Assembly (NCBI GenBank): GCA_977020255.1 | Contig: CDROCS010002783.1 | Location: forward strand, 1 to 64,000 | Source of the DNA: Obrimoposthia wandeli | Lineage: Eukaryota | Direction of reading: 5' to 3' | DNA length: 64,000 nt | Shown: in pieces, positions 3,400 to 62,655 of the stretch | Position numbering within the stretch: position 1 is the stretch's first letter | Layout of the letters: each line of letters begins with the position of its first letter | Position numbers and translations under genes: made by a program | The notes under the pieces: model-generated | Databases searched by the model: none | Told to the model about the DNA's origin: nothing | Seen by the model: only the letters and a program-made list of their open reading frames with translations

Positions 3400-3736
3400 C
3401 CTATGAGAATGAACAACTGGCCCTCTTCAGTTCCAAAAAACTTTAATTGTGTCTTGTTTATTTTTTATTAATTTGTTATTGCCTACGTTTCTTTTTAAAA
3501 TACTTAACATTTGTAAAGTCTAGAGAAAACATAAAGTCTATTCATTTTATAAATATTTAGTTTTTATTTAACCTATTTTACTTAATATTTATCATAATAA
3601 TGAAGATCTAAACTATATAAGTTTTAATTAATAGTCTAAAAAAAATGAAGACATTTTTAGCACATATTTTGCAAATAGTTGTAAAAAAGTTTAAATATAT
3701 TTTTTCAAATTTTTTGCTGTTAATAAATATTTTTAA

Positions 3737-4255
3737 ATGTTTCTGCATAATATCAAATTGGTAACATGAATTATAAGGGAAAGGTTTTAAGCTCAATCAA
3801 GGACTTACCTTTTCGCTAATCAAAACCCCAACAATATCGTCTCAAATGTCTATACTATAATACTTTTTAAATCTGGTAAATTATTTTATTATAAAATATT
3901 AATATTTTTAAGACTCCTGCCGAGTAATGGGTTGTAAAAAAGTGTTAGATGAAAGCACTTTACCATTTGATATAAAAGAATTCAATCAATTACTGTTAGT
4001 GTTGACTTGGAACATTGGATAAATCTTAACAATATGAGTGAAAATATGGGAATTGATGCAGTTTATGAACCAGAAATATTTCCTGGACTTCGTTGTATTA
4101 AGTATAATCCACTTTGTGTAAACATTTTTGCTAGTGGGAAAGTTATGATTTTAGGTTTAAAGATTATGAATTTCTGGTTGAACTTATTTTGTATAATATA
4201 TCTCTGTTCACTTGTGTTTTTCCTATTCTTGTTTTATAAACAAAGCTTATTTTGA
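3737..4255 (+). pseudogene. TBP-like gene, copy 1 (intron 3876-3912; frameshifts and an internal stop)
   Basis: MFLHNIKLV...YTIILFKS / 37-nt GT-AG intron / SCRVMGCK...YEPEIFPGLRCIKYNPLCVNIFASGKVMILGLK. The YEPE-FPGL and IFxSGK motifs are TBP-repeat hallmarks. Confidence 0.8.
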
Positions 4256-4267
4256 TCTAAAATAAAA

Positions 4268-4804
4268 ATGAATGATAAAGCGATTAGTGGAGTAGATAAT
4301 GATCAAATTGATGAACAGCGAGTGGAATTTTTAAATGGATTAGCTTTTATGGAGCCTTTAATAGCTAATGCTTCTAGAATGGAAATGATGCATATGTGTC
4401 ATCTTCTTGATAGATGGATTGATTCTAAATATAGTGCTTTTATTAAAGAGATGTTAGAAAGCACGAAAATGAGTGAAATTTTAATAAATCATCTTTATAT
4501 TGATAATTATCGTGATGGGTCTGATGAAACTGAGCTCCTTCAAGCAGGATTTACTCATGTTATCAATACATCTCAATTTGTTATAATTCAATATAAAAAG
4601 TTAAAGTATACTTCTGTTTTCGTTAAAAGGAAAGAAACAATAATGAAATATTTTAAACACCCAAATAAAATTATCAAAGAAAATATTTAGAAAGGAGGAA
4701 AGGTTTTAGTATGTGGTCATTATGGAATACATACTGCTGTAGGAATTGTTATAGCCTACTTATCTCTTTCTATGTCTGTTAGTGCTGTGGCATTATGTAT
4801 CTAA
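4268..4804 (+). pseudogene. Dual-specificity-phosphatase-fold gene, copy 1 (in-frame stop at 4688)
   Basis: SEILINHLYI, GFTHVINTS, then after the stop GGKVLVCGHYGIHTAVGIVIAYL. This is a DSP scaffold with a degenerate P-loop. Confidence 0.75.
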
Positions 4805-5183
4805 AATGAAATCTATTTGGAGTTCAATGAGTCGTAAATCAAGAAAAATCAATAGATATTTAGTTGATAATTATCATAAATTGAACTTAACTGATGGGAA
4901 TATTTATTTTAATATAGTTGAAATTAATAATAAAATCAAAAGTATGTGTGATGTTTCAAAGGCAATTTTCTATATTTTAGATGAACATGATGGAGAAAAA
5001 GTAAAAACCATAAGAAAATATTTCCCAGAATTACAAATATTTAATTACTCTAGAACATTTAGACAGTTAGATCCTATTCCTTTTAATATTAAATGTCCAT
5101 TTAAAGAACATGGAATGCATTGTGCATATAAGAAATGTCTAAGTTTAAGTTTGGATTTCTTAATTTCGAATCGGCAATGTTAA
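4805..5183 (+). CDS. Hypothetical protein between DSP and PolB, with a C-terminal Cys/His cluster
   Basis: Open ~126 codons from the ATG at 4805. Ends in CPFKEHGMHCAYKKC. No family recognised. Confidence 0.45.
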
Positions 5184-5301
5184 CCTTACGATTATGTCAT
5201 GCATGTTTTTGTCAACTGCTGAATGTTATGTAATACAAGCAGCTTGAATTATAATAGAAGTTAATTGCTTGTATGTAAAATAACACACATCATCTTTTTA
5301 G

Positions 5302-5332
5302 TATATAAGGTTCGACGAAGTAGAAATCAGTT
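5302..5332 (+). promoter_or_regulatory. Candidate Pol II core promoter (TATA + Inr) for the PolB gene
   Basis: TATATAAG at 5302 and TCAGTT at 5327-5332, ~25 nt upstream of the ATG at 5355. Confidence 0.4.
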
Positions 5333-5354
5333 CTTCTACAAACAAACTTAGAAA

Positions 5355-8300
5355 ATGGTAAGATTGTTTTTTCTCAAAAATTATTTTTTAATTTATTTTA
5401 GAATTGTAATATGCGAAGAAAACTGTGTTTCAACACAAATCATGACGAGTGCCGAGCTCAGATGGAGCAGTACTTTGAAGTACGCAACAATGGTAGAAAA
5501 TTATTTGTCTGTCCTGTGTGTCTGTCGGCAGAACAGATCGACTGGACGAGTTTTGCAGATTGACATGAAGATCACCTGACGCATTTCCAGGTTCGAGACA
5601 AGAAATCAATTTTCAATCCTGCAAGATCTTCTCCACAATCTGCTATCACCAACTCCTCTACTGCTATCATGCCTGCTCCTATTCCTGTTGCCGTCAATCC
5701 AGCAGGTCGTAATCCTTCTTTACTAACGCATCTACTCGCAAGAGAAGTGTTATGCCCACTTCAGGTAGCTCTGCATCTCATGGAATTAGTGCGGGGGCTA
5801 GTCGGAATGTTATCCCTGCTAGCTCTGCCGCGAAGAGGGTGCGACCTAATACGTCAGTAAGATCGGGTTTAAGGGGTTCAATAGAAACACTCTCTCTTGA
5901 TGTTTCAAGTGAAGGGATGTTGGTTTTAGATGTGCCAGAATATTTTATTGATACTCTGCGCACAACAATTTCTAAATATATTACCTGTAAGGTGCAAGTC
6001 GGAGTTAAGGTAGAATTCTCTAAGGATGAGGAGACAAAATTTTGGAATGTCTCGAATAAGGGAGTTGAATTCAGCAATGAGTTTATTACTGATGGGATTG
6101 CAGCCCTTAATCAAAAAATTGAGAATTACTCTCAGAATGGTAGTAATTGGACGGTAACCCGTTTCCATGAGATATCATTTATTGTCACAAAAACAACGAC
6201 AATGAATTATCTTCAAGGGCGGAGTTATATTCCAACTCCTTATAGGCTTGGACACACGCTGTGAATATGTCAAACGTTTTCTGCTTTTTATACAGTATTT
6301 TAGCTGTACTTTTTAGGGATTTATTTAAAAGTAACCCTACAAGACCTCGTCAATATTAGGGACTTTTCTCAGAGCCCTTTTATGATGAGGCCGATATGCC
6401 AATGCGTCTGGGCAATATACCGAGCTTGGAGAGGGAGAATCCTAAACTCTCAATCAACGTATTTTCTTTCAATAATTTCGGTTGTATTCCTCCCAATGAA
6501 GAAAATTTTAAAAATCCATTCATTGATGTAATATACCGAACCACAAATCCCAGCGGCACACCGGTAAATCTTCTTCTTTTAGAAAATGATTCTGGTTTTC
6601 ATCATGTGGCGGTTTCTAAACTAAGCAAATTACTAAATTTTAGGAATAAAGGACCTGCTACTCGAATTAGGTGTAATTGGTGCCATAAGTGTCTTCATGG
6701 CTTTAGGAATCCAGTTAGTTATACCAAGCATGAGGCTTTGTGCACAATGAACAAGGAGCATACGACTCTTTATAAGATGCCTTCAAATAAATATATCGCT
6801 TTTACTGATTTCAGTAAAACGGTATCACCTCCTTTTGCCGTTTACGCCGACTTCGAGGCAGTTTTGCCGCCGCATGGGATTCATCATCAGATTCATCTGC
6901 CCATTGCGGCCGGTATGCTGATGTCTCCAATCACAGCTGCTTCAAATGGATTTACACAGGACTAATCTTTTTTCACAGGAGAATCTTGTGTGGTGTCTTT
7001 TCTTAAAAGTTGAAGAAGTTGGCTAGGGATGTTGTTCTTCCATGGTATCGAGATCATGCTGTTGCAGTAATGCGCGCACTAACCCCGGAGCAAGTAGCTA
7101 GTTTCCATGCAGCTACTACTTGTTACCTGTGTAATAAGCGCTGCGTTAACAAGGTCAGGGATCACGACCATATGACTGGGGAATACCTTGGAGTATCTCA
7201 TTTAAAGTGTAATTTATCGCGGAGAATAAATCGTTCTTTTCCTGTTATTTTTCATAACTTGAGAGGATACGATATGCATCCTTAAGCATGCGATAACTCA
7301 GTTTTCACATTGGGATATATCAGTCATACCCCAATCAACTGAGAAATTTCAGGCTATGATCGTACACGTTCATGGAATCAGTATTCGATTTATCGATTCG
7401 CTGCAGTTCCTGAATAGCTCTCTTGCCAAACTTGTAAGTTACCTGGATGTTACACCACTTACGCATTCTGTCTTCTCATCTCAACTCGTGTCCCGGAAAG
7501 GCATATTCCCGTATGACATGGCCACTTCAGAGACTGCTCTCCGGGCAATCACAAGTCTCCCGCCTAAATGGAGTGAAGCTATAGAAGATGTCCAGTATGA
7601 ACAAGCACTGAAGGTTTGGGACGAGCACAGCTGTACATCTCTTTGGGATTACATGCTCCTGTATCTGAAGATCGACATATACCTCCTTGCCGATGTTTTT
7701 ACAACGTTCCAGAAGAAAGCCATCGCTGATGAGTCATTGGAGCCGCTCAACTTCTTCTCGATTCCTGGTAAATTTTAGTAGTAGATTTTAGTAATCATTT
7801 TCAGTAATCGATTTTCTGTAATTTTCAGTAACAATTCTTTTAAAAGTCTTTATTTTAATTCTTTAACAATTCTTTAAAAATCTTTAATTTATTTTTCTTC
7901 CCAGGATTATCATTCGCGAGCGCTCTCAAGTCTTTGCTTCCTTCTACCTCATCGCCTCATGAAATCAAGGTGGAACTTGTTCAGGATCCAGAGATGTACT
8001 CCCTGTTTCGTGACGGCATCAGAGGAGGAATGACATTTGTCAACGAACACAAGGTTGATGCAGTGAATGGTTGCGAGCTCTTATACATTGATGTAAATAA
8101 TCTGTATGGATGGGCTATGTCCCAATTTTTACCTTGTTGGGATTTTAAGTTGGTAACTGACCAGTTAGAGTTAGGGGTTATAATTTCGGAGCTCTCATTT
8201 AAGGATTTACGTTGTAGCAGCTTTGCTCATTTGATGGAGGTGGACTTATCCATTCCTAAAGAGCTGCACGATAAACTAGCCGATCTCCCCTTAGCTCCGT

Positions 8301-8690
8301 GAAAGGAATGCCCTATTGGTAGTAAACAACCAAAATTACTTCTGACTCATTACCCTAAAAAACATTATATTGTGCATTCCAGATTGCTTCAAATGTATAT
8401 AAGACTTGGTGCGAAAGTAGATTATGTAAATAGAGCAATACGGTTTGCACAAACTAATGTTTTTGCAAAGTATATTGAGGATAATTCCGCGAAAAGGGCT
8501 AGTGCTGCAAATGATTTCGAACGGGAATATTATAAATTGAAGGTTTATTCTCTGTTTGGTAAGTTAATAGAGAATTTAATGAAGAGAATTAACCTCCGTA
8601 TTTGTAATATGCCACAAAAGCTTGTTACCTATTGTAGTAAGGCCCAATTCCGTAGGACGATGGAAATCGACACTAACGTAATAGCTGTTT
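5355..8690 (+). pseudogene. polB: Polinton/adintovirus protein-primed family B DNA polymerase with embedded endonuclease VII domain; spliced, frameshifted, 3'-truncated
   Basis: Ordered motifs: GSNW...GRSYIPTP; LSINVF; PFAVYADFE; EndoVII CYLC...RDHDHMTGEYLGVSHLKCN; FHNLRGYD; FIDSLQFLNSSL; RKGIFPYD; GIRGG; YIDVNNLYGWAMSQFLP; KLKVYSLFGK. YxDTDS is missing. Predicted introns 5358-5401 and 7768-7904. Confidence 0.92.
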
Positions 8691-9573
8691 AGGTTAGATA
8701 TTGAGTAATAACGATTAGTGGGCATATTCCCAATTATTGATTTTATAGTTGAAAATAATCAATGATGTTGTAAATAGCTACTTATAAGTCAATAGGTATT
8801 AAGGAAAACTTAAAGAAACAACTTCTGAGTATTGATAAAGTCATCATATTTTTATAAAAAATCGGGTAAAATCTTTATGATTACTATTAATAGTTTTGGT
8901 TCATATAAATGGATTCTATCTTCATTAGACATTAAAAAATACTTTAAATCAATTAATATTAAGACATTGAATGAGAATTATTCAAATTTACGATTTCATT
9001 AATACATAGTAAATAAGTTATTTTCAAAGAGAGTTTTATCGAAGTCATCAATATTATCATTCCAAAGCCAATATTTAAGCATTTCATCTATTCCTTCTAC
9101 ATTCCTTCAATTAAAATCAAAGCTAGGTATGCTATTCTTTTAAAGATAAAGTTTGAAGTACTTTATTGAAATTTAGATGCAATAATGAAGAATAGTGTTA
9201 AAGAATTGACATTATGATGAATTAGAGGCTATATCTGAAAGGTATAATCTAGAATTGATTGATATATGTGAGGAAATTTATGAATTATACCTGGTTTGTT
9301 TGACATCTTGTTTGAAATAATTATGAGTAGACATTATAATGACGTATGGTCAAAACGTTGACTGTTTATATACAACTAAAATTTGATTGGATAATGGTAG
9401 AAACATGACAAATACAATTTATGTATGTTGATGATTAAAAATACGTATTTGATTAAGCAAAGTTGTATTAAGCGCTGCAATACTACGTTTAGCTTTAACA
9501 AGATTCCATGCAGAATTATTCTTTAAATCTATATTAAAAATATTAGTATTAAGATAGTGTTTATAAGACAAAG

Positions 9574-9855
9574 TTACTTCAAATATTTAATTACAATATA
9601 TCCACCAACAAACAATAAAAAACTCTTCTCCCAGAAAAAGCTCCTCTTTTTTTCTTTCATCTCTTCTTTCTTCTTATTATAGCCCAGAATTAGAAAATTG
9701 ACTGCCTTATTGTGAATTATTTTTCGTACATGCTCCTCCAGAGGTAGATCCATTGCTTCGATGATTCTCAGAACATTTTCTTCTATAAGATATTTCGATA
9801 TGAAACTCTTCACTGCCCGTTCAATATCTTGCTTGAAATAATTGCGAGTAGACAT
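9574..9855 (-). CDS. Hypothetical 93-aa protein with a hydrophobic C-terminus, in Polinton remnant 3
   Basis: ORF track; basic stretch followed by FLLFVGGYIVIKYL. The upstream ~230 bp (9830-10030) is repeated, diverged, at ~9300-9530. Confidence 0.35.
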   Translation of the reverse strand: MSTRNYFKQDIERAVKSFISKYLIEENVLRIIEAMDLPLEEHVRKIIHNKAVNFLILGYNKKKEEMKEKKRSFFWEKSFLLFVGGYIVIKYLK

Positions 9856-9899
9856 GATAATGAAGTAGGAGTGAAAGGTAAACTGTTTATATACTATAC

Positions 9900-10561
9900 A
9901 ACTAAAATCTGATTAGATGATAGGAGAATCATAAGAAATACAATTTTTGTATGATAATGATTAAAATTACGTATTTGATTAAGCAAAGTTGCATTAGGTG
10001 TAGCAATACTATGTTTAGCTTTAACAAGATTCCAGACAGTTTTAACACTCATTGAAAGAGATAAAAATGCAATAACAATACAAACAGCATGTAAACCTCC
10101 ATAATGACCACATACTAGAACTTTCCCACCATTTTGATGGTTTCTTTAATTATATTATTAGTCTGTTTCTCCTAATTTCGTATTTACATAGATTGATTTT
10201 TATTTTAATTCCTTATAAGATATCTTATCTGCTGGAGATGTATTGATTACATGTGTGAATTTCGATTTTAGAAGCTCAGTTTCATCAAACCCGTCACGAT
10301 AATTTCCAATATATAATTGATTTACTAAAATCTCGCTCATTGGGGTTTGTTTAATTTTTCCACACTAAGTTGGTTAAATCTAGCTCTAAACAAACTATCA
10401 AAAAAGGTGGGTCATATGAGACATATCCATACTGGGAGCATTACGGGTTCAATAAAAGTCAGAGCATTTAAGAAATCCAATCACTTATTTTCTTCTTTAT
10501 CAGTATCTTCAATAATTTCTTAATTTTTCTCTGCTGATGATGGTTCACCGAGGTTTTCCAT
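9900..10561 (-). pseudogene. Dual-specificity-phosphatase-fold gene, copy 3
   Basis: Minus strand reads GFDETELLKS...HVINTS...HQNGGKVLVCGHYGGLHAVCIVIAFLSLSMSV, with frameshifts. Confidence 0.75.
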
Positions 10562-10669
10562 TTTATTGACAAATTTAAAGCTATAAGAGTATTGTTTTTT
10601 TGCAAGTAATGTCTTTGTTTAGGAAATTACACAAGTTTGAAGATGTTTATTAAATAAAATACATTCAAC

Positions 10670-11127
10670 AAGATATTCATATTATAGGGTCTTAACGCCA
10701 AGTATCAAACCCCTTCCCGCTCGCAAAAAATGTTCACGCATAGAGGATTGTATTTGATATAACGTAGCCCTGGAAAAATTTCTGGTTCGTAAACTGCTTC
10801 CACTCTCATACTCTTGCTCATCTTACTCAGGTTTATTGGTTTTTCTAAGTACTAAGTACTGACACTGATTGATTGAATTCTCTCGATTTTGATATTGAAC
10901 GGAAGAGTGCTTTCATCTAGCACAGCTTTACACCCCATGATTCGACATGTTCCAAAATTATATTAAAACTTAAATGTAAAATAAATTACCAGATATGAAA
11001 ATTATAATAGTATAACTATCACACTTGTGTCGGTACTGATGTGGCTTCGAAATGGTAAGTGTTGAATATTGCTTACAACAATTCCCTTGTAATTAATATT
11101 TACAAATTTGATATTATGAAGTAACAT
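10670..11127 (-). pseudogene. TBP-like gene, copy 3 (37-nt intron at the same site, acceptor mutated)
   Basis: MLLHNIKFVNINYKG...YTIIIFIS / gtaattt...ttttg / GTCRIMGCKAVLDESTLPFNIKIERIQS...YEPEFF. Frameshifted. Confidence 0.75.
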
Positions 11128-13453
11128 TTCTGGTTATTATAAACTGATTATTATAAACTAATTCTTATATATTATTTGAAAATCTATTTTTAGATTACAA
11201 ATTATCTGTATAAACAATATTCCGATATTGATTTTTATTGAAAATGGATAATCAAGATAGAGCAAGCACATATATTGGTTCTGGTAGTAATTTATATGCT
11301 AATATGGATTATAATAGAAATAATCATAGAGAAAATATTAATCCAGTAACTGAAACAATAACAAGACCCACGCGCGTAACCGAAGAACGTGAGCCCTTCA
11401 AGGATATGACTAATACGAAGCGATTTACATAAACAACATTATCAACCAATTGGAATCAGACTTCAAAGGATAAACAATTGAATAATATCACTAAATAACT
11501 TTTCTCGAAGAATTCTCCTCTGTAAACACCTTTTAAATTCCATCTCTGAACATGTATAAATCAGTACATAATATATATTTCTCTACATATTTTAAAATGT
11601 ATATTTAAAAATTTATTGATTATTTTAATTAATTGCGATAATGAAGATGAATGAATAGAGATTGTGATAATGAAGGATGAAGATGAGTGATTGCTTTGAT
11701 GAGAAGAAGGATTGTGATAATGAAGATGGATCGAAGTAATGAAGATTATGATGGTGTAACAATGTATGTATCTTTAATAAAAATTATTCTTTGCTATCTC
11801 TATTTACTTGTTTAACTCATAGGTTTAAAAATGTGTAATAAATAGCTTAAGATTACAAAAACGTTTTCTAGTGACAAATAAAAGTAGAATCAATTATACA
11901 AAATAAGTCATCACTTTTCACTACTTCTACAAGTTGTGCCTCATTTATGGCTTGTTGAAAATATTTTACTTCTAGTAGTGCTGGGTGATTTTTGATTTTA
12001 TCGTTTAGTCCATATAAAAACTGATGTAGTAGTAAACGTTCTCTTAAAGATTATATAAAATCATAATTGATTATCTGATCATTATATTGACGTAGTATAA
12101 GTTTCTTGAGAAAATAACCAATATGATTCACTTTATTTTCTTTAAGCTCTTAAATATACCGTAATTCTTCTACTTATTATTACTTCACACTTAACCTCAA
12201 TGGTGATTTAATTGAAATATTTAATGACTGTACAACTTGATGAGTAGAAGAAATATATGAAAAACTTGAATTTGATTTACTATATTGAAATAATAGTAAA
12301 ATATTGATAATTTAAATACAACTTTCAAGGTTTTATATAGAACTTTAAAGCTTACGATAACTGTTATAATTTTGATGAATTATATGCAATATTATTACTT
12401 TGGTATTAGTTTCTTAAGAAAATTATCAATTACATGTGATATAAAATCATCTTTCAATACCTGTTATGATTGTAAATTTGATATAAGATTCTTTGACATG
12501 AGGTATTTTCATCAGGTTTATGCATAATATTGATACAATACATACATTATTGATATCTTATATCTTTGAAAATAATCAATAATATATGAGGTTATGTAAA
12601 GATTTCGTCATGCAATACATGTTATTATCGTGATGATTTGTATGCAGTCCTTTTAGAGTTGCTTGAAGAGAAAATATCCCATCTCACTTCTAAAACTTTC
12701 TTAATATTCCGTCATACATCACAATATCTGATTAATTCCTCAACTCCTTTTAGGGTATATTTTCTCTTCTGAAATCTCCTAAATACTTCGTAATATCTTC
12801 TTCTACTTTGCATTGCTTCGTGAAATGCTACATAATAAATATCAATGATGATTCAAGGCTGGCTGATGAAATGAATGTAGATAAGTTGCTTGAATATTGA
12901 CTTTGGAAGTAGTCTTTGGATATTTGTTAAATCTATATAATTTCGGTATAACTTTCTTTGAGATCTCGGGTTAAGACTATTTATGATCACGAAGCATCTT
13001 CCAGAGATTTCTCTGTTATGTTTGAAGTTATTGATTGAATCAGATGATCCATGAATTTGAAACGATGGATGAAATTGATAAGTAATTGATAGATATGTCT
13101 CTGTAACTATTTGATTCATTCTCACTAATACTCTTAGAAATGTTCAATATTTTCCTTTTGAAACATATAAATAGTAATTAATCATTTCTATTCTTGAATA
13201 TTGCATACGCTTTAATTACTATCTCTTCTCATATATAACAATCCGGGTATAATTTCTTCATATATCACAAGTCCAACATTTAGAACATAATTAACAAACC
13301 AGGTATAATTCATAAATTTCCTCACATATATCAATCAATTCTAGATTATCCCTTTCAGATATAGTCTCTAATTCATCCTAATGTCAATTCTTTAACACTA
13401 TTCTTCACTATTTAACATTATTTTTTGGGAACCCCCCCTTGTCCTTTAAAACC

Positions 13454-13529: not shown

Positions 13530-14465
13530 CTTACTCACTCTAAAAATGTGGGCGATGTAATTAAGTTACTTTTAGTAGAGTTATTTACTCTAAAAATATG
13601 GGCAATGTTATTTAGTTAATTTTGTCTTTAATTCTCTTAAATTAATTCACGATCAATTACTTGTCTTTAACTTTTCTTAAAACAAATTACGATACTCAAT
13701 ACTTGTCTTTTCACGATACTCAAATACTTGTATTTTTAGAACAGTGCAAAACAATTTACGATACTCAATTCTTGTCTTTTTAGAACAGTGCAAAACAATT
13801 TACGATACTCAAATACTTGTCACCTCTAATTTCCACTAGGGATTTATCCACGTAGTTTGGCTGCTGTCCTCAGTCGAGATCTCTGGTTGGTCTCGTACGG
13901 TCAAGTTGGCCTTCCTTTCCTTTTCTTTATGTCCTGGTTGACTTCTCTTGGAGTCAATCGGTGCCTGAGTTACCGAGCTCCACTATCACTCTGTATAATG
14001 ATAAGGATTCATATTTACGATACCAGCCAGAGATCTCGACTGAGGACAGCAGCCAAACTCCGTGGAGGAATCCCTCGTGGAAATTAGAGGTGACAAGTAC
14101 TTGAGTATCGTAAAAAGACAAGTATTGAGTATCGTAAATAGTTTTGCATTGTTCTAAAAAGACAAGAATTGAGTATCGTAAATTGTTTTGCACTGTTCTA
14201 AAAAGACAAGAATTGAGTATCGTAAATTGTTTTGCACTGTTCTAAAAAGACAAGAATTGAGTATCGTAATTTGTTTTAAGAAAGTTAAAGACAAGACATT
14301 GAGTATCGTAAACTGTTTCAAGAAAAGTTAAAAACCAGTAATTGATCGTGAATTAATATAAGAGAATTAAAGACAAAATTAACTAAATAACATTGCCCAT
14401 ATTTTTAGAGTGAGTATACTCTACAAAATAAACCAAACTAACTTGCCCATACTTTTAGAGTGCAT
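13530..14465. repeat. Foldback-like quasi-palindrome with 44-bp subrepeats and a ~118-bp spacer
   Basis: Arms 13530-13897 and 14016-14465 are inverted. Unit ttgttttgcactgttctaaaaagacaagaattgagtatcgtaaa occurs 2x (left) and 3x (right). Confidence 0.92.
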
Positions 14466-18790: not shown

Positions 18791-20266
18791 GATTGAATCA
18801 GTGATTAAACATGTTTGTACATGAATTGGAAGAATTAAATGAAAAATTATTAAAATAAATGGCTATATTTATAGTCCTTGCAAAGGACATATCGTAACCC
18901 TGAAGATTAAATTAAATTATTAAAAGGGGAACAATTTAAGAAAATTAGAAATGTAGATTAATCAATCTCATGTGACCACTGATTCAACAGCGTAAATACA
19001 GGTCACATGAGACACCACAACACAAGAAGTGGATTTAGATAAGAAAAAACGAAGTGGATTAGTTGTACTAGGAAGTACCACATACAATTTGGATTTTTGT
19101 TAAATTTTTTAACATATCATTAATACAGGAAATGGACACTGGAAATCCTATAAAAGAAGGAATAGGAGATTTAAGTAGAATATTGAAGCACGACATAAAA
19201 GTGGACTTTTACCACGAGAGGAAAACTGGATGAGGACTACGCAAGAAACAAGGAATAGACCCACGAGAAGAGAACGAGACAAGCTTAAATACCAGTACTG
19301 GACGAACTCGAAACAGGACCAAGTATCGAGTGTTAAACGGTGAGTAGAATTTAAATAAATTGTTAAAATTCATAAGCAATCTCATTTATTTAGTTGTCCT
19401 GAACATGGACTATTTTTAGTAGAATTAAGATCAGGGAAAAATCTGTTAGATTAAAGAAATTGAAAATAGGATAAATAAAATAATTATTTATATTAAAAAT
19501 TTTAACCTTAAAACCAAAGGTCAAAATGAATTTAAATAGAAAATTAAAAATAAAATAAGATTTTAAATAAAATTAAATGTGTCAGAAAAATTAAGACCTT
19601 GAAGAGGTCATAAAAATATGTGTTTATTAAGAACAAACAATGTACAAAAAGTGTAAAAAGGAAGATAGATTGAATAAAGTATTAATTGAACTAGAAAGAC
19701 AATTTAGAAGAAAATCCCTCGAAAATACGAGAAAAACAATTTCGTACCTCATGTTTGTAAATGAAGTGTAAATGACTATTGAGGTTGTGGTTGTTTTTAA
19801 AGATAATTTACATAATGGAATTGTTTAAACAATTTTTTCCCAAATTGACAAACATCATAAAGATTGTCTGTATTTTAAATGATTTTAGGGTTGAGATTAT
19901 TTTGTAGACTCAAAAGTCAAATTTACAGGCATATAAAAACATATTTGTGTCATTTTTTTTTGTGTCAAATATTTAATAGAAAATATTATCATGTTTTGTT
20001 TAAATGATTCATAAGTTAACATTTCTAAATATTTGTGGTTATTAGGTAATTTTTAAGCGTGCCAACAATAATATTTGACTTTATAATAATGTGAAAAAAA
20101 GTATCGGAAGAATGAACAAAGAGTTAGTTTATACATTTTACAAACCTGGTCTTAGGTTTACGATCGCTTAACAGGCCCACACTGTAAGAAAGACAATATA
20201 TACAGCACTCAAGCGACTGTGTGGACTTCGGATGCCACAGTAACATCAATAGCAGTCTTCAGGACA

Positions 20267-20900
20267 AACCCGACATCCTTTAGCCTTCTCGCAGGGCATT
20301 TAGACTTTAGATTAGACACAACACAAAAATAGTTTTAGAGAATTTTACATTATCCTTGAACACAGACTATCTAACAAACAAAAAAACATCAGAGACATGA
20401 TAGGTAGGCCACATTATGGATGAGAGCCATATCACTACAGAACTCATGCTGAGGGCCTCCATACGAGTATTCTAAGTTTCGATAGAAAACTTCAACAATA
20501 TCAATAAATGCTGCATATACAATTCACTTTTTAAAAAATTATGAATCTGATATAGAAGCAAAATATAGAAATGATAACACAATTATTCAAGGGTCACGCT
20601 AATTATAAATCCTTTACTACAGGTGAAACATAAGTTTGTTTTACATACTCTTTATAAAGATTAATTCAAAACAAAATTTATTGAAATTTAAGAAATCCTA
20701 TAATTATGTTTATGTAATTAGTTTAGGAAATGTGATCTGCCATCATTTATTCCTTCAAGTTATCATATTTTTAATGTAATCACTATTTACTAACCAAATT
20801 CACAAATTTCAAAGAACTGTGTACAAACTGTTATTAGCAGATTAAGGGTCTTTAGTTAGGGCTTATGCGTGTTAATGTTTGCATTACTAAATACCTACTT
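20267..20900. repeat. Right arm (part B) of the inverted duplication
   Basis: Reverse complement of 2206-2815; includes a copy of module M at 20400-20500. Confidence 0.9.
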
Positions 20901-22819
20901 ATACATACAATAAAATCTCGTTACAAAGTACACCGGACATAACGTACATCGATATAGATATATTTTGGATCCTTAGAAGATATTTTCCCTGTTAATGCAA
21001 CTGGTTGCAAATATATTAACATGTATAAAATTGTGGTTAGCATTAAAAGTGGAATTTTAAATTATATCGGATTTAACTTAGTCTTTAATTAAACAATATA
21101 TAATATTCAATTTTTATATGGTAAAATATTAAGATCCCAAAATTTTTATAGATTTTATCATATTAATTATTTTTTCTGAATGCTTGCTTAATTTTTAATA
21201 ATTTTGTTAATTTATTCTAATGGATACTTTTTTAATGTTAAGATGACCCATTTTAGTTTAAATGTGTTGCATCTCAAAACAAAAAATAAAAGTAACGAAT
21301 TAATATATTAGAAGTATCGAGGCATATTCTTATTATTCTTAATTATTTTGGTACCGAACATATCCTTAGCCAGAACTATAAATACAATAAGAATATTTGT
21401 TTGTTATTTATCTTACATAGCGTCACAATCTGGATTTGTATCGAATATACTGGTTAATGAAAGCGTTATAAAGGTATTTTATAGTTTGAAAAAGATAGCG
21501 ATGAAATTTTTTAAAAATTGATAAAAAATTAATACATAGCGAAAGAATTGGATTTTTTGACTCACTGCGATCAAACTTTAGAAAAGTTGAAGAAAAAGAA
21601 TATGCTACAAATATTTCAAGAATTAATTTACTCTTTAATTTTAGTTCACAATATTTGAATTTTTCAATTTCCTTTTATTCATGATCTTCAAAATGAGTTT
21701 ACACCAATAAATCGCAGCAATTTTTTCTTCTGTTTCTGATTTCTATAATAACAAATTATTTCTTTTTTGAATTTATATGCTAAGGTATTTGAAATTAGTG
21801 AATATTACCTAATCTTTTTTTGTTGAGAAAACCACTGGTTACGCATTATACCGAATCATATGGGTTTTTACAAATTCAACCAATTATCAAGGTTATTATT
21901 ATTTTCGATTAATTTTACTTTTATGAAAAATAACATTTTATTGTAAAGTTTATTCAATCAGAAATGATAGCTTTCTTCCTGTCTGTGATATTTTCTAGTA
22001 TTATCCAAAGTTAAATGACGACTGATACCACAAATGAAGTTATTTTGGAAATAAAAGCTATTGAACAAAAAGTTATTTAATTATAAAAAATTAAAGATAA
22101 ACCCTGTGAAGTAAAAAAAAATTATTGACATAATAGCGACGCAAATATTCACTAAAAGAAAATCATTCAATTTGGTTCTGACGAATTAACATTAAATAGA
22201 AAACCAGCAATGACAGATCATAAAGTCTAATCTCTAAATTACTAGGTAGAAATTTAAAATCAATACGTCATCGTAGTTTAAAGTGTGTTTGAATCGAGTA
22301 TTAAAGGACAATCTACTTGTCAACTGCTAAAACCTTTTTAATTAGTGTAAAATAATATAGCATTTTCCTACATATCGAACCGAGTTATTTCGATTACCCA
22401 ACATATAGGAATAAAACAAGACGATTCCCTCTACACACCATACTACATTATGATTTTTAAAAATATGAATCTTTATTATTATACAGAGTGATAGTGGACT
22501 ATTGGAAGTCTGTATTGATCTACAGAAACTGTACCGAAATGGCCATATGCGATAAATTACTTCAAATCAGAACTCCGACAACTATGCTACGCTCAAGAAA
22601 TATGCAAGTTCCTGGAGTTGGAAACAAAGAACCCAAAAATAGGGGCATCAGATGCCACAACAGATACAATCGCAGTTGTCCAAACAAAACCAGACAAGAA
22701 GACCAGCATGTCAACAAAAATCGAGCCCGCTAACATATATTTGCAAGAAGCTTGAGCATGTCTGATACACTATTCAGGAGAGCAGAGTGCTTCAAGATCA
22801 AGCATACTGATCCTGCTGA

Positions 22820-23700
22820 GGTCACTAAAAGCGGCACCGAAAACCGCTCCAGGAACTGATCAGGTCAAGTATACTGACCTGGTTCTGCCGCACGAGAACG
22901 TCTGAGCGAGCTTTACAATGCTTGCTTTGACAAATGTGAGACACTTGATACATGGCGAACGTTCAAAACGAAGTTCATCCAGAAGCCACAAAAGGACAGG
23001 TATGATGACATAACTACATGGCGGCATATTGCCGTTATGAGTTGTAGTTATAAGATTTTCGCAACAATGATCGCAAGGAGAATGAGCGACTGGGCCTGGA
23101 CGAATCGAGTTGATCAACTTGATCTCAACGGATGTACATCGAGACCGGAACAGGAGTAGCATATATTGCTTTCCTTGATTTAGCCGATGCCTGTAAACTT
23201 CATCTGGGGCATGCTCCAGCGAAGTAATGTGGATCCAACCGCCATCGAACTACTGGCAGACATTTACAAAAAGAATCTGACGAACATCTCCTGTGGTAGC
23301 CAGAAGATTGACCGAATAAGGATCAGACGAGGAGTGCGACAAGGATGTCCTCTCTCGATGCTGCTCTTTAACATGGCCATCAACCCAGTCATTGAGGCGG
23401 TGAAACAATACAGTGGCCCTGGATACAAATTCGATAGCGGCGAAGAAATATGCGTTCTAGCGTACGCAGATGACTTAGCGCTCATATATGGATCTGAGAG
23501 CGGTCTTCAACGAATGATCAATGTAGCAGATGCGACAGCCAGCAGCCTACAACTGACATGCAGGCCAAGCAAGTGTGGGTATTAAGGATCCCTCAACAAG
23601 ATCAATCTCAGGTAAATCACTTCCAACTTCGTGGAGAATATATTCCTGAGGTAGTTAATGATCGACCTTACATATATATAGGAGGCGACAGAAATGCTGG
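22820..23700 (+). pseudogene. Non-LTR retrotransposon RT fragment (R2/NeSL-like), less decayed copy
   Basis: KTAPGTDQVKY; TWRHIAVMSCSYKIF; AFLDLADA; GVRQGCPLSMLLFN; LAYADDLALI; CRPSKC; PYIYIG. Confidence 0.88.
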
Positions 23701-25083
23701 TGCCAAAAATTGAACTCTTGATGAGAAAATAATAAAAGCTTATGTAAAAAAGTATTGGAATTATCGACCGAATTGGGAATAAGTAATTAATCTTTACCTT
23801 CACTATTTACTTTCAAATCCATTTGTTTATATACGTATTTTTTAGTTATTTATAAAACTTAATAATTTTTTTCTTAACATTTTTGAAATACGTACGTTAT
23901 AGTTTTACATAGAATCCGTTTAATCTTGAATCATTGGGTCAGATTTTAGCTTTGATCTCTTTCTAAAAACTGCTTCTAAATTCGGATATTCTGGCCAACG
24001 TTGTACTGCATTATCAACTGAATTTGCGATTAGTAACTGAAAATATAGAACCCTACTTGAGATAAAAAGACTGCCATTCTCAAATTCACATTTGTAATTT
24101 GAACCGTATCGAAAATTGTAATAACTACATATTAAAACAAATAATAAATATTTTTTAAATTACATCAAAAGTTGGATTTTATCACGATTAAGTAACATTA
24201 TCAAATTGAAAGCTTTAGCTAGAAGTATAACAATTGTGCAATTTTATATAAAAATAATTTTAATAAAAGCGATTTTATTAAAAAATATATATTAAATTGC
24301 AACATGTATTCGTGTAAAGTAAAAAAATTATCAAGACTCACTTAAAATCAATTTTCGTAATGCACATATTTCTAAAATGTTCTAAATTTACTTTGATTCA
24401 ATTTAAGGTTACTGTAGATTAATACAATCTTTACGTTGTTTTAAATAAGTTAAAACTTATTTTAAATGTTGTGTTATTCTTAAATTCTAATTATATAAAG
24501 TATTAACATAAAACATAGTTATAAAGTATAGCAAAAGTGTAGAATGCCTTCCAAATATTAATAAAACTCAAAATTTGGTTATCATGAAATATCATGCTAA
24601 TTTTAAATTGAAAATTTTCAAAATATATTTTCTTCGTTTATTTCTAGGATATATGTTTAAAATATTTTAAAAAAGTTTCTACTGCAGTTTTTGCTAGCTC
24701 TTACTTTATGATAAATTTAAAACCTTAAATATATATAAATCGAGATAAGCAACTTAAACAAAGAATATATTTCCATTTAATTATATTTTACTAGAAATTA
24801 TGAAATAAAAAAGATTTATTTGGGATTAATGGAAGATATTTGAGACTTATCATGTCTGTTTCGCATTTTAATATCCTTCCTTTAAAATACTTATTTTCGA
24901 ATATTATTATACAATCAGGATATGTATTGTAACCCTTTAGTATCAAATACGATTGAGATAGTGGATTAATATCTTGTGTCTTCATTATTTGATAATCAGA
25001 AATCATTTCTGCTTCACCCATTCAAAGTTCTGAAACAGATCAGGAAGTCTGTAGATGAATATTATTTGACAATGTATCAGACA
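22850..25083. repeat. Right arm (part A) of the inverted duplication
   Basis: Reverse complement of 1-2205; judged by eye as mid-to-high 90s percent identity. Confidence 0.95.
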
Positions 25084-32229: not shown

Positions 32230-33045
32230 AATGGGTAGATGTGGCATTTCTAAGGGGTATGAGTTAGGGTCGTGATGAGGTCAACAAGTAAGTAATTTGA
32301 AATCAAAAAGTAGGTCGAGGTCATGTGATGTAGGTCAAATTTCTCCCGAGAATACATGCTTTTTTCAAGATCATGTAGCTCACACTAAGTCATAATAAGG
32401 TCAAAGTTATGTGACCTCACGAGATCACATTACGTCATACGTAGGTCAAATTTCTCTAGACTACGCATGATATTTCAAGATTTTGACTCATGTCATTTGT
32501 TCTATAGTGCACTTTTATACATCAGTTGAGCTCATTTGCTTACTATGAGCACAAGGTCATCTTATGTTCGGTAATATAGTGTACTCATCACTTGAGCACT
32601 TGTGCTTACTATGAGATCAAGATTATTATAAGGTTATGAGCTCAAGGATATTATAAGATTATGAGCTCAAGGTTATTACGAGGTTATGAGCTCATGTGCC
32701 CACCACGTGCTCAAGGTCAAGGTCTAGGTCATGAGCCCATGTGCTAACTATGAGTTCATGGCTTGAAATGCCTCACATCAGCCAATCATAAGACAGTTAT
32801 TCACACCCACATCAGCAGCTCTGGACAAAGTGGATAAGCTCACAGCATATTCCCGTCATAGAACATCCCATTTTGTTGCTTAGATAATTTCTACAGTTAA
32901 AATATGATGTCCATAAAAGGTTCGATGATTATTCCAATAATGTTTGAAAAACACAATTGAAGGATAATGTTCTTAGATATTTGTCCTACTATCATGTCTT
33001 TCAAACATATACTAAAAGTCAATTAGAAATAAAATATAAATAAAA
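32230..33045. repeat. Left TIR
   Basis: Reverse complement of 39360-40028. Inner ~350 bp is nearly identical; the outer part has short GAGCTCAAGG/AGGTCA subrepeats and indels. Confidence 0.9.
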
Positions 33046-33416
33046 ACTCACCTGAGCAGAATAAATAAATCCATCGTCAATTGTGATTTTCTCTGCCCCG
33101 GCATTCAATTAGCCGCACATACTCCGATACAAGAGAGAGGAATTAACAAGAGAAAATTACGCACTCACACAGATGTGATGAAAATGTCACGTGACTGTAT
33201 GAGTGTGTGATTTATAAGTATTTGCAACTATTTGCATCATCACGTGTACATGATGTTCTTTGTGAATTTTTTCCTACGGCAACTATCACATGTTGAGAAC
33301 ATTTCAACGACTACGAGCACATGGTTACTCACTCAGTCTTGAAGGTTCTTTTAAAGGTACTTCTTTCTGCTGTTTATTTGAGTTGCTTTTTTAAGGAAGT
33401 TTTTTGAGTTGCTTCT

Positions 33417-33495
33417 TCAATAAGTCAGCCCAAAGAACCAACTCGAAGAACTTATTGCTGGTTCTTCGAGTTGGTTCTTTGAGCTGATTTATTGA
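33417..33495. repeat. 35-bp-stem hairpin (2 mismatches, 9-nt loop)
   Basis: tcaataagtcagcccaaagaaccaactcgaagaac / ttattgctg / gttcttcgagttggttctttgagctgatttattga. Confidence 0.9.
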
Positions 33496-33841
33496 TTCTT
33501 TAATATGGTGTTTCGAATGGGGTTCTCTCAAGGGTCTAAAACCTTCCAGGATGGACTTTTAAATGTTTAATCCTTCAAAATTTTATATTTTTATCCTTTT
33601 TAAAATTTTATAATATGCTTGATTAGAACTTGACCAGACCTTCGAAGATGGATCTTCAAAAGTTTATTTTTTTCAAATGTTTAAAAATTATTTTTTTATT
33701 TATTTTGTTTGAATATTCAAAATCTTTTGACGCCAAAATTTTAAAAAATTTCAAATCACTTGTGCATAATTTTCACCATGAACATTTTTGCCTCTGAAAT
33801 TTTTTTTTCAAAACTTTATTATTTTAAAATCAATTACTAAT

Positions 33842-34429
33842 CTAATTACAAAGACTTTCAACATTGGAAAATAAGCAATCATTTTTGAATGCATACTGCT
33901 CACGTACATCCACTTGATTATAATGATGCATATTTATCTTTAAAGTCGGTAAATCATATATTTGATTAGGTAATTCCGATTCATAAAACATTCTTTCAAT
34001 ATCAGCTTCTTTCATACCGTAACTTAATGCTAAACTTTTATTATCAATTTCTAATTTGAAAGCTTGTCCTTTAGTGCGAGTAATACGTATTTTGTCTTCA
34101 TTGCTAAGGTAAATGACATATTTACTATTAGTTGGAGTTATATACTTGACGAAAAATTCTCCATATTTCATTTTCAAACCTGATTCAACTTCAGTTTTTA
34201 TTGATTTCTCCACAACATAATCTATAATTAACCCCCCTTTAATGGATAAAGGAGAATAATAAAATGAAAATTCCGTTAGAGCATCTTCCCAAGCTCCCGG
34301 TAAATTGATTGAGCTTTGATAATCAATTTTGAAACTACTTGCATTATTATCCGGTTGAGTTAATGGCGATCCATTACTTGGTAATACAACATACATTGAA
34401 GTCATTATATTTGAGAAGCTAATATCCAA
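33842..34429 (-). CDS. Polinton minor capsid (penton) protein, N-terminal part
   Basis: MYVVLPSNGS...PDNNASSFKIDYQSSINLPGAWEDALTEFSF matches the recalled penton motif (LPSN..N..S.F..L.G.WEVAL.EI). Confidence 0.8.
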   Translation of the reverse strand: MDISFSNIMTSMYVVLPSNGSPLTQPDNNASSFKIDYQSSINLPGAWEDALTEFSFYYSPLSIKGGLIIDYVVEKSIKTEVESGLKMKYGEFFVKYITPTNSKYVIYLSNEDKIRITRTKGQAFKLEIDNKSLALSYGMKEADIERMFYESELPNQIYDLPTLKINMHHYNQVDVREQYAFKNDCLFSNVESLCN

Positions 34430-35429
34430 CTAGGTTCAGTGTATCCATGCCACTTAACTAGATATTGTTTATGCTTTCCTCGACCCTTTGTTTTCACTAT
34501 TTCTTGAATTCTATATACTTTGGGCTTTGACGGTAATACTTGTAGTTCTTCATGATAAAACTTGCCACTAATTTCATTATTTGTTTCATCTTCAATGAAA
34601 TACATTAGTGGGTTATGACTAGTATCAATTTTAGTTGTTTGGAAAACCTCATCACTCCAATTCTCTTTGAAATTCTTTATAAAAGGAGTAGTACTTATTT
34701 GTGATATTCGAACATAATCTCCAATTTATATTTCGGTTTCTTTACAACCTGTTTTTGATTACGTTGTGACCAAATTTCCATTGCATTTTTATCAGAAATA
34801 TCAACTGGTCTCTTTCCATCTAAGCTTCTATATGGACTATGATTATATGCTCGTATTATTTTGGGTATAACGGTAATCCATCTCTTATTTCCCACTTTAG
34901 TGAAATATCTTTTCAAACGATCTCTCAATGTTTGATCAAACCGTTCTACTAAAGCTGTTTTATATTGAGAAAACACAGAATAATGATTGATACCATGTTT
35001 CTTCAATAAGCCACTAACATTTGTATTGTAAAACTCCTTCCCTTTATCGGTTTGAAAATTAACTGGTTTCACGTCTGAAAATAATTTTTCCATTGCTTTC
35101 AGTACGTCAGAACCTGTTTTAGACTTTAATGGTATAGCTCTTGCTGTTCTGCTGAAAACATCAACACACGTTAAAATATATCGGTATCCATCATTAATAC
35201 GATCATAAGGAATCATTTCCATTAAATCAGCATGCCATAAATCATTAGGTCCGCTAGTCTTGTATGATCTCGTTGGAAAACGACGTCTCATCGGTTTGTT
35301 TAAACTGTACGCTAACTGATTTCCCAGCCATGTTTTGGTTTCCTTTTTTGTCTTCTTCACTTCTTTTGCTAATTTTGAAATTCCAGTATAACCAACGGGA
35401 TGACTTGGATTGAACCATATCTTCTCCAT
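34405..35429 (-). pseudogene. Polinton retroviral-like (rve) integrase with C-terminal chromodomain; one frameshift near 34715
   Basis: WHADL; LTCVDVFSR; FQTDKGKEF; VERFDQTLR; then IGDYVRIS, NWSDEVF, GKFYHEELQ, QYLVKWHGY (chromodomain). Confidence 0.92.
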
Positions 35430-35944
35430 TACAACAGGATGAATTGATTTTTATTTTGAACTTCAGTATAGATGGAAGTGAACTCATACAAAATTAATGT
35501 TTTTAGCTCAAAATACATGTTTATAACCACCATTTTATAAATCTGCTTAATAGAGCCAACTATAGGAACTAGAAAACCAAGAAATCTTCCACTCTGTTTA
35601 TACAATAACTTACGTTTACCAGCTTGTGTTTTAGCTCGAAACATATCAAGAAGTGGCTTTTTATGCTGTTTTAATTTATTTGGATTTTTAACCGATATTT
35701 TACCGGAAACTATTTTCTGGATCATATTTAGCATATCATCAATTACAAACGTAGGAAACGATTTAAGAATAGCAGGTCGTCGATTTGTGGGTGCACGCAT
35801 AAGAAAATTGAAATAGGCAATACTCCTAGATTTCTTATCTGATTTCAGAACAACTATTTGTTTCATATTCTTTCGTTCGTTTAACACTGATTTAAATAAT
35901 GTCTTAGCTTCAGGTTTAATAATTTCCTTTTTGAAAGTCATCAT
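35429..35944 (-). CDS. Polinton basic protein with a QxGG(R)FL amphipathic motif
   Basis: KRKLLYKQSGRFLGFLVPIVGSI. Paralog at 46741-47070 has KQNGGFIGAVIP. Confidence 0.65.
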   Translation of the reverse strand: MMTFKKEIIKPEAKTLFKSVLNERKNMKQIVVLKSDKKSRSIAYFNFLMRAPTNRRPAILKSFPTFVIDDMLNMIQKIVSGKISVKNPNKLKQHKKPLLDMFRAKTQAGKRKLLYKQSGRFLGFLVPIVGSIKQIYKMVVINMYFELKTLILYEFTSIYTEVQNKNQFILL

Positions 35945-36588
35945 CGCGAAACTTGTTTTTTCATTTGTTTATAGATGCTAATACCATTAGGATTGAATAT
36001 ATCAGTTTTAATTCTTAATTCATCGGGACAATCTTGAGTAAAATCAATGAAAATGTATCCATGAGGAGTAGTAGTAGCATCTTGAAATGATTCGATTAAG
36101 AAATTTCTATTATTCGGATAGGCTTGACGTGAAACAAAATCAACAACAGTTTGATCACGTGGATTCTTGAAAAGAACAAAATAATGTACATTTAAATTAC
36201 GAGTTCTATGATTACCACCCTGATGAAATAAATTTTGTGTAATGAAAATAACAGTCACTTCACGATGTTTTGCTATTTTAGTGAATACATTATTGAAATC
36301 ACTCTCTTTATTGGCTTCCTGGTACAAATCATGAATAACAATAACATCATGACGTTGTAATCGATCAGTCCAATTATCATCAAATCCCTTAATGACTTTA
36401 ATATTTTTAATTTTCTTAAACTCAATACTAGTTAAACCAGCTTCTCCATCTCCACCCTGATGCCAATATATCTTATTAAACTTGAATTTAAAATATTTAT
36501 TATTTTGAAGTAATTTACAAATAAAATGGGTTTTCCCACTTCCACTTGATCCTACAATTTGGAAAACCGCATTATTTTTCAATTCCAT
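35941..36588 (-). CDS. A32/FtsK-like packaging ATPase
   Basis: Walker A GSSGSGKT; Walker B VIVIHD (D to H); FITQNLF; LNVHYFVLFKNPRD. Confidence 0.92.
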   Translation of the reverse strand: MELKNNAVFQIVGSSGSGKTHFICKLLQNNKYFKFKFNKIYWHQGGDGEAGLTSIEFKKIKNIKVIKGFDDNWTDRLQRHDVIVIHDLYQEANKESDFNNVFTKIAKHREVTVIFITQNLFHQGGNHRTRNLNVHYFVLFKNPRDQTVVDFVSRQAYPNNRNFLIESFQDATTTPHGYIFIDFTQDCPDELRIKTDIFNPNGISIYKQMKKQVSR

Positions 36589-36681
36589 ATTAAAGGATTA
36601 GTGTAATAGGATAATGTTTATAAGACATAAATATATCAAAAGTAATTTATTATAAAACATAGACAGACTATAAAGAAACAT

Positions 36682-37320
36682 TTACATAGATTCACAGAAT
36701 CGATTAAAAAGACGGATTTGAGAACACATAATATCCGTTGGTGTAGCAATACTACGCCTAGATTTAACAAGGCGAGAAGCAATACTAACAGGCATAGAAA
36801 GAGATAAAAATGCGATAACAATACCCACAGAAAGATCAATCCCATAATGTCCACAAACTAAACCTTTTCCTCCGTTTTCGATATTTTCTTGAATAATACT
36901 ATTAGTTAGTTTATAATACTTCATCACTGTTTCTCTCTTTTTTATGAAAACAGATGTAAACTTTAGTTCTTTATATTTAATATGACCTGAAATAGATGTA
37001 TTGATAACATGAGTAAATCCGGATTTGAGTAGACTAGTTTCATCAAACCCATCACGATAATTAACAATATAAAGTTTATCTGTTAGAATTTCACTCATTT
37101 TTTGACCTGACTAACTTTTCTTTACAAAGTTGACAATATCTAGAATTAAACAATCTATTAAAAAGACGTCTCATATGGTTCATTTCCATACTAGAAGCAT
37201 CGCCTATTATATGCTCTATCAAATCTAATCTATTTAAAAATTTTAATAATCATAGCATCTTCTGTTCTTCCAGGTGTTACTGCTCCTGATTCTGTTTCTT
37301 CATTTAATTTTTCCATCTTT
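36682..37320 (-). CDS. Dual-specificity-phosphatase-fold protein, copy 2 (DSP domain ORF 36682-37098 is open)
   Basis: SEILTDKLYIV, GFTHVINTS, GGKGLVCGHYGIDLSVGIVIAFL, ASRLVKSRRSIATP. The N-terminal extension is frameshifted. Confidence 0.8.
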
Positions 37321-37470
37321 TAAAGAGTTAGATTATTTTATCTTATAATGAATTACTTTGATTGCGGTATGAGACACATTATCTGGAGTAGATTTAATTG
37401 AAACATCATCAACAATCAATTCATTCATCTTTATATTAGAACTAAATAAGCTTTGTTTATATATAATAAA

Positions 37471-38014
37471 TCAATATAAATGTAAATCACATGAGTGAAT
37501 AAGAAAGAAAATACAAGTATGAGAAGATATATTATACAAAATTGTTTCAATAAAATATTCATAGTCTAGAGTTTTTATACCTAATATCTTAATCTTGCCG
37601 CTTGCGAAAATATTTACACATAGCGGATTATACTTGATATATCGCAGTCCTGGAAATATTTCTGGTTCGTAGACAGCTTCAATTCCTATACTTTTGCTCA
37701 GCTTGCTCAGGTTTAGCGCTTCTTCGAAATTTGTACTAACAGTGATTGATTGAATTCTTTCAATTTTTATATTAAATGGTAACTTGCTTTCATCTAATTT
37801 TGATTTACAATCCATTATTCTACACGAGCCTAAATATTATAATTAATTTTTTAATATAAAATTATATACCAGTTTTAAAAATTATTATCGTATAATCTTC
37901 GCATTTGTGTCGATACTGATGCGGTTTTGAAGTGCGAAATGGTAAATCCTTGATACAACCTTTAATCTTTCCCTTATAATTTATATTCACTAATTTAATA
38001 TTATGAAGAAACAT
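37471..38014 (-). CDS. TBP-like protein, copy 2; intact after splicing (exons 38014-37870 and 37829-37471; ~167 aa)
   Basis: MFLHNIKLVNINYKG...YTIIIFKTG / 40-nt GT-AG intron / SCRIMDCK...RIQSITVS...YEPEIFPGLRYIKYNPLCVNIFASGKIKILGIK. Confidence 0.85.
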
Positions 38015-38158
38015 GTTTTAATAATATAAACAAGTTCAGGTTTTATACTAATTTGAAAAATCAATATTATTATTGTTATCCAATTAGAATAGAGAATTAT
38101 AGGATAAACAATTGATTATTTTATATTATTATCTGTTATAATTATGTATGCCGCCAAT

Positions 38159-38551: not shown

Positions 38552-38825
38552 TGATTTAATAAATATTTATCCTTATGTAATTTAAATATTTTATATCAGA
38601 TTTTTATAAGAATTATTTGTGATATATTAAAGATCAAACACACACATGTATTAATATAAATATGATGTAACCCTATTTTAAAAATAGAAAATACATACAT
38701 TTAAAATTATTTTATCATTTAAAGACAATAAAAAGAAGAAAACTCATAAAATTACTAAAATTTATTTTAAAAACAAAAAGTCCTAAAGAGGACTGATGAT
38801 GCCTTCTCATGTAGATCATCTACTT

Positions 38826-62172: not shown

Positions 62173-62232
62173 TACTGTGGGAGGGTTGATGTTGAATTTG
62201 GGCTCGATTGAGGACTGGTGGTTGTGTGATCT

Positions 62233-62532: not shown

Positions 62533-62655
62533 TCTAAATACATGATGATGATTAAATTCTACATGAGTTTTATATACTTCTACTATTTGTACAATCGCTT
62601 CTAGATATTTCTACATATTTCACACACTAATTTATCTACAACCTCCTCTGACTCA

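Follow-up and report, generated by a model that had tools for sequence, protein, structure and literature searches.

Candidate spliceosomal introns shared by the polymerase genes of Polinton families in Obrimoposthia wandeli

In the passages of the respective papers that deal with gene structure, the core genes of Mavericks/Polintons are stated to be intronless both in vertebrates, where only elements with intronless frames were called intact (PMC8097293), and in nematodes, where introns were assigned to cargo genes only (bioRxiv 10.1101/2022.07.12.499685). A survey of protists used a prokaryotic gene caller since endogenous viruses 'do not contain introns', as its account of gene calling puts it (PMC10120064). 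An earlier note on the DNA analysed here, which described Polinton core genes as usually intronless, is in line with what is said of the vertebrate and nematode elements.

Introns of spliceosomal type are known from several related systems, as described in the relevant sections of the papers cited. Inside integrated Maverick-Polinton-like elements of dinoflagellates they are introners, that is, recent, multi-copy, intron-making transposons mostly inserted after integration (PMC11957031). A host-spliced intron is present in a185r, the family B DNA polymerase gene of the chlorovirus PBCV-1, and its conservation was studied in 42 related viruses (PMC7019647); PBCV-1, however, is a large lytic algal virus with an RNA-primed polymerase and not an integrating, protein-primed element. 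Adenoviruses, which are relatives of Polintons, produce the terminal protein and polymerase mRNAs of their E2B unit by splicing (PMC9499273). They differ in that they do not integrate. Both of these mRNAs probably begin in a tiny upstream exon, and we know of no intron within the body of the adenovirus polymerase between its exonuclease and polymerase parts. The intron passages found in PMC10748475, PMC12220804, PMC8502044, PMC11296320, PMC6431247 and PMC10175614 deal with group I introns or with different subjects. In our literature search no report of inherited spliceosomal introns in Polinton core genes was found, and the supplements of PMC8097293 and PMC10748475 or the flatworm Polintons of Repbase may hold such cases.

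The lineage described here, from Obrimoposthia wandeli, resembles the vertebrate and nematode Mavericks, as far as those accounts go, in its pPolB, chromodomain integrase, A32-like ATPase, adenain-like protease and probable double jelly-roll-like capsid, and also in its terminal inverted repeats and its target duplication of 6 bp. It is unlike them in that its polymerase and protease genes are interrupted, at positions shared across families. With the dinoflagellate elements, as portrayed in that paper, it shares spliceosomal-type introns inside integrated elements, but here the introns appear to be old, inherited with the spreading element and confined to a single site, with no transposon marks seen. 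Two segments interrupting the polymerase gene are very probably ordinary GT-AG spliceosomal introns, which the host would splice from the polymerase transcript of a Polinton lineage that is still spreading.

A broken polymerase gene with two interruptions

The stretch studied, referred to as the window, comprises the first 64 kb of a contig in the 1.35-Gb, AT-rich genome of O. wandeli. The inferred start of the polymerase gene, on the forward strand like all its parts, is a start codon that forms exon 1 by itself (5355-5357). As the earlier note had stated, a 44-nt intron follows it; this intron 1 (5358-5401, phase 0) adjoins the start codon directly, begins with GTAAG and ends with TTTTAG. 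Exon 2 (5402-7767), which is broken in this copy, would comprise an N-terminal Cys/His module and a terminal-protein and vOTU region, labelled by analogy to the arrangement described in a part of PMC11161782, followed by an endonuclease VII-like insert and an exonuclease domain. In a Pfam scan, its fragments matched PF03175 (E 1.3e-6) and, weakly, PF02945 (E 0.004). Intron 2 (7768-7904, 137 nt, phase 1) separates the exonuclease from the polymerase part, and the exon 3 remnant (7905-8692) holds the start of the polymerase domain (PF03175, E 8.5e-5). In the Pfam DNA_pol_B_2 profile, the frames flanking intron 2 correspond to consecutive stretches, 24-161 and 181-255.

Intron 2 starts with GTAAAT and ends with a pyrimidine run and CCCAG. 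Its G+C content is about 19%, versus 47% and 44% in its flanks, stops are present in all three of its frames, and short tandem duplications make up its interior. The word TTTAAT lies 10-20 nt upstream of the AG in both introns of the window, such words being common in AT-rich DNA. Left unspliced, the polymerase frame terminates three codons into intron 2; by our own labelling of the motifs, this stop presumably lies 60 residues ahead of the first polymerase motif and about 30 behind the final one of the exonuclease. The segment splits the Gly codon of FSIP-G-LSFASALK after its first base, and its removal restores the pPolB motif that the earlier note had named. The homologous proteins agree with this: out of 120 fetched, 117 span the site, and all 117 are gap-free there, reading PG[LYMF]x[WFL] or close variants. 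Because these proteins are mostly the output of gene callers, which favour uninterrupted frames, the figure of 117/117 overstates the rarity of intron 2 outside this genome.

For comparison with the host, two confidently placed introns of the CCT4 gene, of 40 nt and 677 nt, are AT-rich and bounded by GT and AG, and both window segments appear to be like these in size and composition. A CCT4 frame of the host shares 62-66% identity with the animal sequences closest to it and, in a quick tree, joins the flatworms on a long branch (support 98); by this somewhat unsure placement, the host would be an invertebrate and probably a free-living flatworm. One of the three CCT4 candidates was a false call, and with CCT4 as the reference, four intron placements in other host chaperonin genes scored too low to be used. 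Separately, the genome yielded 94 chaperonin matches, 21 of which, situated on different contigs (L198-L221), are frames of about 530-590 codons without interruption and form a large intronless Cpn60/TCP-1-like family.

The window copy of the polymerase is a dead, truncated fragment of a high-copy Polinton family. Positions 4789-8690 align colinearly, at 95% identity, with a single stretch of a family copy, and the alignment stops at 8692, with 649 nt of the reference remaining unmatched. The gene carries four frame-changing gaps, near 5719, 6253, 7005 and 7278, together with several stops, and the exon 3 remnant has a stop at 8300-8302 in addition to its 3' truncation. The genes for ATPase, integrase, capsid and protease, which in a family copy sit between the accessory genes and the polymerase, are missing. 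Upstream of the polymerase, on the same strand, lie a TBP-like accessory frame (3971-4255; PF00352, E 1.9e-11), a second accessory frame without Pfam match (4256-4690), which we take to resemble a dual-specificity phosphatase, and what is left of the gene located ahead of the polymerase in family A (4755-5183; no Pfam match below E 0.09). For non-animal adinto-like viruses, a figure legend likewise mentions a TBP-like gene (PMC8502044).

Other repeated sequences are found in the window. Inverted repeats at 1-2822 and 20258-25083, at least 2.8 kb long, 90-97% identical and with reverse-transcriptase fragments, enclose the dead Polinton. Two copies on another contig show only 7 and 10 differences in 2.29 kb and have a stop in common, so that movement or duplication of the entire unit is conceivable. 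A second, inverted Polinton fragment (9574-11144, reverse strand) is 65-73% identical to 3735-4781, and its frame at 9574 resembles a family C frame. Farther along, 13536-14462 holds a fold-back element, each arm of which contains 44-bp tandem repeats, and a 7-kb element with 385-bp inverted repeats but without polymerase occupies 32660-39746, its frames resembling, by similarity only, the TBP-like, ATPase and integrase genes of Polintons. A cluster of short frames lies at 61029-62610 on the reverse strand. Presumably, their Cys/His spacing is RING-finger-like.

The Polinton family behind the polymerase gene

At least 150 close copies of the polymerase are present at separate sites, with 92-100% amino-acid identity among the best candidates scored, and among the relatives that have a name is an adintovirus PolB at 38%. 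In a family copy, PF03175 is matched by each of the two large exons (E 1.6e-12 and 4.2e-15). A copy of family A, the family of the window fragment, encodes an integrase (PF00665, E 3e-13) with a chromodomain. An A32-like packaging ATPase (PF04665, E 1.2e-6) and an adenain-like protease (PF00770, E 4.9e-4, just under the curated cut-off) are likewise found in a family copy. The candidate major capsid frame had no Pfam match and reached an Atlas feature score of 0.98 to clusters in which 15-30% of the members are PF21738 DJR-like; a double jelly-roll capsid is probable, at the level of a lead. Between the integrase and the major capsid lies a frame of a size fitting a minor capsid, also with no Pfam match.

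Two family A copies seen in their context measure 13.2 and 13.9 kb, and the elements overall 12.5-13.9 kb. Terminal inverted repeats starting with AGTAG and 6-bp target duplications flank 2/2 copies of family A and 1/1 of family B; for the window fragment itself, neither terminal repeats nor a target duplication were found. On all defining features for which a result was obtained, the family is a Polinton/Maverick.

Individual copies are decaying. Within family A the pN/pS ratio is 0.56, a stop is met within 291 codons in 6/28 copies, and splice sites, namely the donors, are mutated in 2/30 copies for intron 2 and in 3/30 for intron 1. These values would fit selection that acts on the spreading lineages and not on the inserted copies, as in a living family with decaying members.

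Introns across copies and families

The earlier note had named the absence of the 137-nt segment from other copies as evidence that would speak against an intron. No such absence was seen, since 30/30 of the nearest family A loci, the window's own included, keep a segment of 103-173 nt, with GT and AG at its ends in 28. Its length takes any value modulo 3, and it contains 3-5 stops in the upstream frame. A degenerate donor-side pattern, made of the upstream residues and the donor, gave 599 matches genome-wide versus 0 for the reversed control and brought further intron-bearing families to light. Intron 2 measures 120-157 nt in family C, to which 14 of the 30 listed pattern loci belong, and 45 nt in 20/20 loci of family D, a length far too short for a group I or group II self-splicing intron. 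In family H, both sides are visible in 16 of 20 loci, where the intron has 207-453 nt and an AG end in 15 cases, and the donor-side motif was not found in 4/20. As the donor-side loci were picked by a pattern requiring GT, the unbiased evidence consists of their acceptors and lengths and of the separately fetched sets of families D and H.

In families A, C, D and H, all of them from a single genome, the break falls after the identical base of the identical codon. Conservation of intron position over the PolB copies, which the earlier note had suggested as a check, therefore holds down to the codon and the phase across the four diverged families. When single natural copies of A, C and D are compared, amino-acid identity is 71-78%, with pS of 0.68-0.90 and pN of 0.15-0.19; dN of their exons is about 0.17-0.21 with dS at 1.8 or saturated, which indicates strong purifying selection between families. 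The same copies have open frames of 786-988 codons before the segment and of 461-517 codons after it. As for the intron interiors, four of the six family pairs align no better than shuffles, and the pairs A-H and C-D, which consist of simple AT-rich sequence, are beaten by just 4 and 1 of 300 shuffles. Because these two pairs score above most shuffles, the interiors of different families do not seem to be wholly independent. GT and AG held at a fixed codon amid neutral turnover would be the expected mark of selection for splicing.

Uninterrupted relatives are found in the same genome. Family B, obtained by a Pfam search of the genome and about 56% identical, has frames of up to about 1,250 codons across the intron-2 region; in a comparison read with X at the break, 29/30 loci were uninterrupted with no residue gained or lost, the alignment of the remaining one ending short of the site. 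Two family E copies are also continuous there. Among 94 distant metagenome and viral loci, of which 91 span the site, 2 gave abutting hits and 1 is cut by a contig end, none has an insert. An outside relative near enough to look for intron 2 in a second species was not found: identity reached 46% at best in metagenome contigs (80 of at least 529 matches retained) and 39% in viral contigs (14 loci), and a Protein Data Bank sequence search with exon 3 gave nothing below E 0.4. An intron-less junction of the A/C/D/H type had 0 pattern matches in the genome, and a looser version of the pattern had 2, belonging to families B and E.

A quick tree, calculated by maximum likelihood from 41 rows, placed families A, C, D and H in one clade (SH-aLRT 100), which was sister to family B (96) and nested among uninterrupted homologs. 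Because of this nesting, intron 2 was likely gained once, on the stem of these four families, and then kept under selection. Of the 55 hits of intron 2 in the examined loci, which amount to 1.67 Mb and are enriched for Polintons, none lies outside the polymerase gene, and the intron shows no flanking target duplication and no terminal inverted match longer than 6 nt. Hallmarks of a transposable element, the other observation that the earlier note had counted against an intron, were thus not seen in these loci. Nor were the features of introners found for intron 2, for which an old introner origin is possible.

Intron 1 is 43-44 nt long in 30/30 of the nearest family A copies, with GT and AG in 27, and the long open frame after its AG is the frame of the ATG. 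The ATG stands immediately before the GT in families A, C and E, where the intron of C measures 42-43 nt and that of E 47 nt, while family D has a first exon of three codons followed by a 44-nt intron. In family B, a Met comes shortly ahead of the first conserved Cys, and there is also a candidate acceptor further upstream. Relative to this Cys, the position of intron 1 shifts by a few codons among families. Families A and C make a weaker case for intron 1 because an internal Met lies three codons past the acceptor; an unspliced start at that Met would lose the first conserved Cys, and family D is without such a nearby Met. In family E, the polymerase carries the start-codon intron together with at least one or two more short introns in its 5' part (L096:3480-4260 and L173-L192), one of which is 44 nt in 17/20 loci, and it has no internal intron.

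The protease gene is built similarly. After the ATG and two more bases, an in-frame GT..AG segment of 38-42 nt follows in 26 of the 29 gene starts seen, from families A, B, C and E (examples are L092:2200-2250, L146:155-200 and, on the reverse strand, L103:7980-8020 and L096:8465-8510), and a pattern for this intron gave 114 matches versus 2. Left unspliced, the protease gene would read two codons and then a stop. In the one family A copy looked at for this, the frames of the ATPase, the integrase and the major capsid run through without a break.

Splicing by the host, competing explanations and implications

If the segments are spliceosomal introns, the integrated or nuclear element would be transcribed by the host RNA polymerase II and the introns would be removed by the host spliceosome, and the spliced transcript would then encode a full pPolB of family B size. 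Elements that lose a splice site would have no polymerase and leave no descendants, and the intron interior, its length as well as its sequence, would be free to drift. In the nucleus, Polintons are copied from DNA to DNA, and because this involves no reverse-transcription step, the introns would be inherited and not purged. The start-proximal mini-introns of the polymerase and protease genes are likely to work in the same way. Four sequencing runs, all from one sample and one study, cover intron 2 evenly, as DNA would; no 7767-to-7905 joint is among the joints listed (15 of 107 and 15 of 16), and contigs cannot show its absence.

The earlier note had proposed a lineage that was intronised and depends on nuclear splicing, or is being domesticated. 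Its first half has good support from the shared codon and phase, the kept GT and AG and the uninterrupted sister families, from which we infer excision. The second half, taken to mean that the host is domesticating the polymerase gene, with the introns as a sign of this step, we hold to be extremely improbable. Introns are typical of host genes and the pN/pS ratio within the family is below 1, but the window copy is dead, being broken and truncated, the introns are common to hundreds of dispersed copies, and the close copies at separate sites decay singly, early stops and mutated donors included.

Another explanation is that the internal segment is an unspliced spacer, with two proteins made, the second restarting at an internal Met, or with recoding. 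A pPolB split is known elsewhere, between the terminal protein and vOTU, according to one part of PMC11161782, and an internal Met occurs about 30 codons into exon 3. However, conserved residues begin right at the acceptor, 30 codons ahead of that Met, and a spacer would leave unexplained why GT and AG stand inside one Gly codon in four families. Segment lengths of any value modulo 3, with no residue gained or lost compared to family B, also speak against a spacer, which we consider very unlikely. The segment might instead be a disabling insertion, a small transposon or a tandem expansion, in non-autonomous elements that borrow the polymerase of family B. This family is plentiful in the same genome and has frames of about 1,240 codons, lesions are found in most copies of family A, and tandem duplications are present in the interior. 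Nevertheless, the strong purifying selection on the exons of A, C and D, with long open frames on both sides, would hardly be expected of disabled genes, and the segment has neither terminal inverted repeats nor a target duplication, nor hits elsewhere in the 1.67 Mb. We regard such an insertion as highly improbable.

Removal of the two segments by the host spliceosome is thus the reading that we prefer. A further proposal, speculative and on the whole unlikely, is that the introns form a control layer, in which cell-type-dependent splicing gates replication and capsid maturation, for instance in stem or germ cells. Retention of intron 2 could then give a terminal-protein/exonuclease product without polymerase, serving as a primer supplier or repressor, by analogy with the P-element transposase, for which intron retention does likewise. 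If this were true, splicing would switch a Polinton between its life as a transposon and its life as a virion.

Surveys that assume intron-free core genes would score intron-bearing lineages as dead or miss them, and the lineages found here have hundreds of copies and show purifying selection. The conserved splice sites argue for nuclear transcription of these elements by the host machinery. Finally, the families would provide a dated case of a mobile element acquiring an intron, in a genome that also holds relatives with an empty site.
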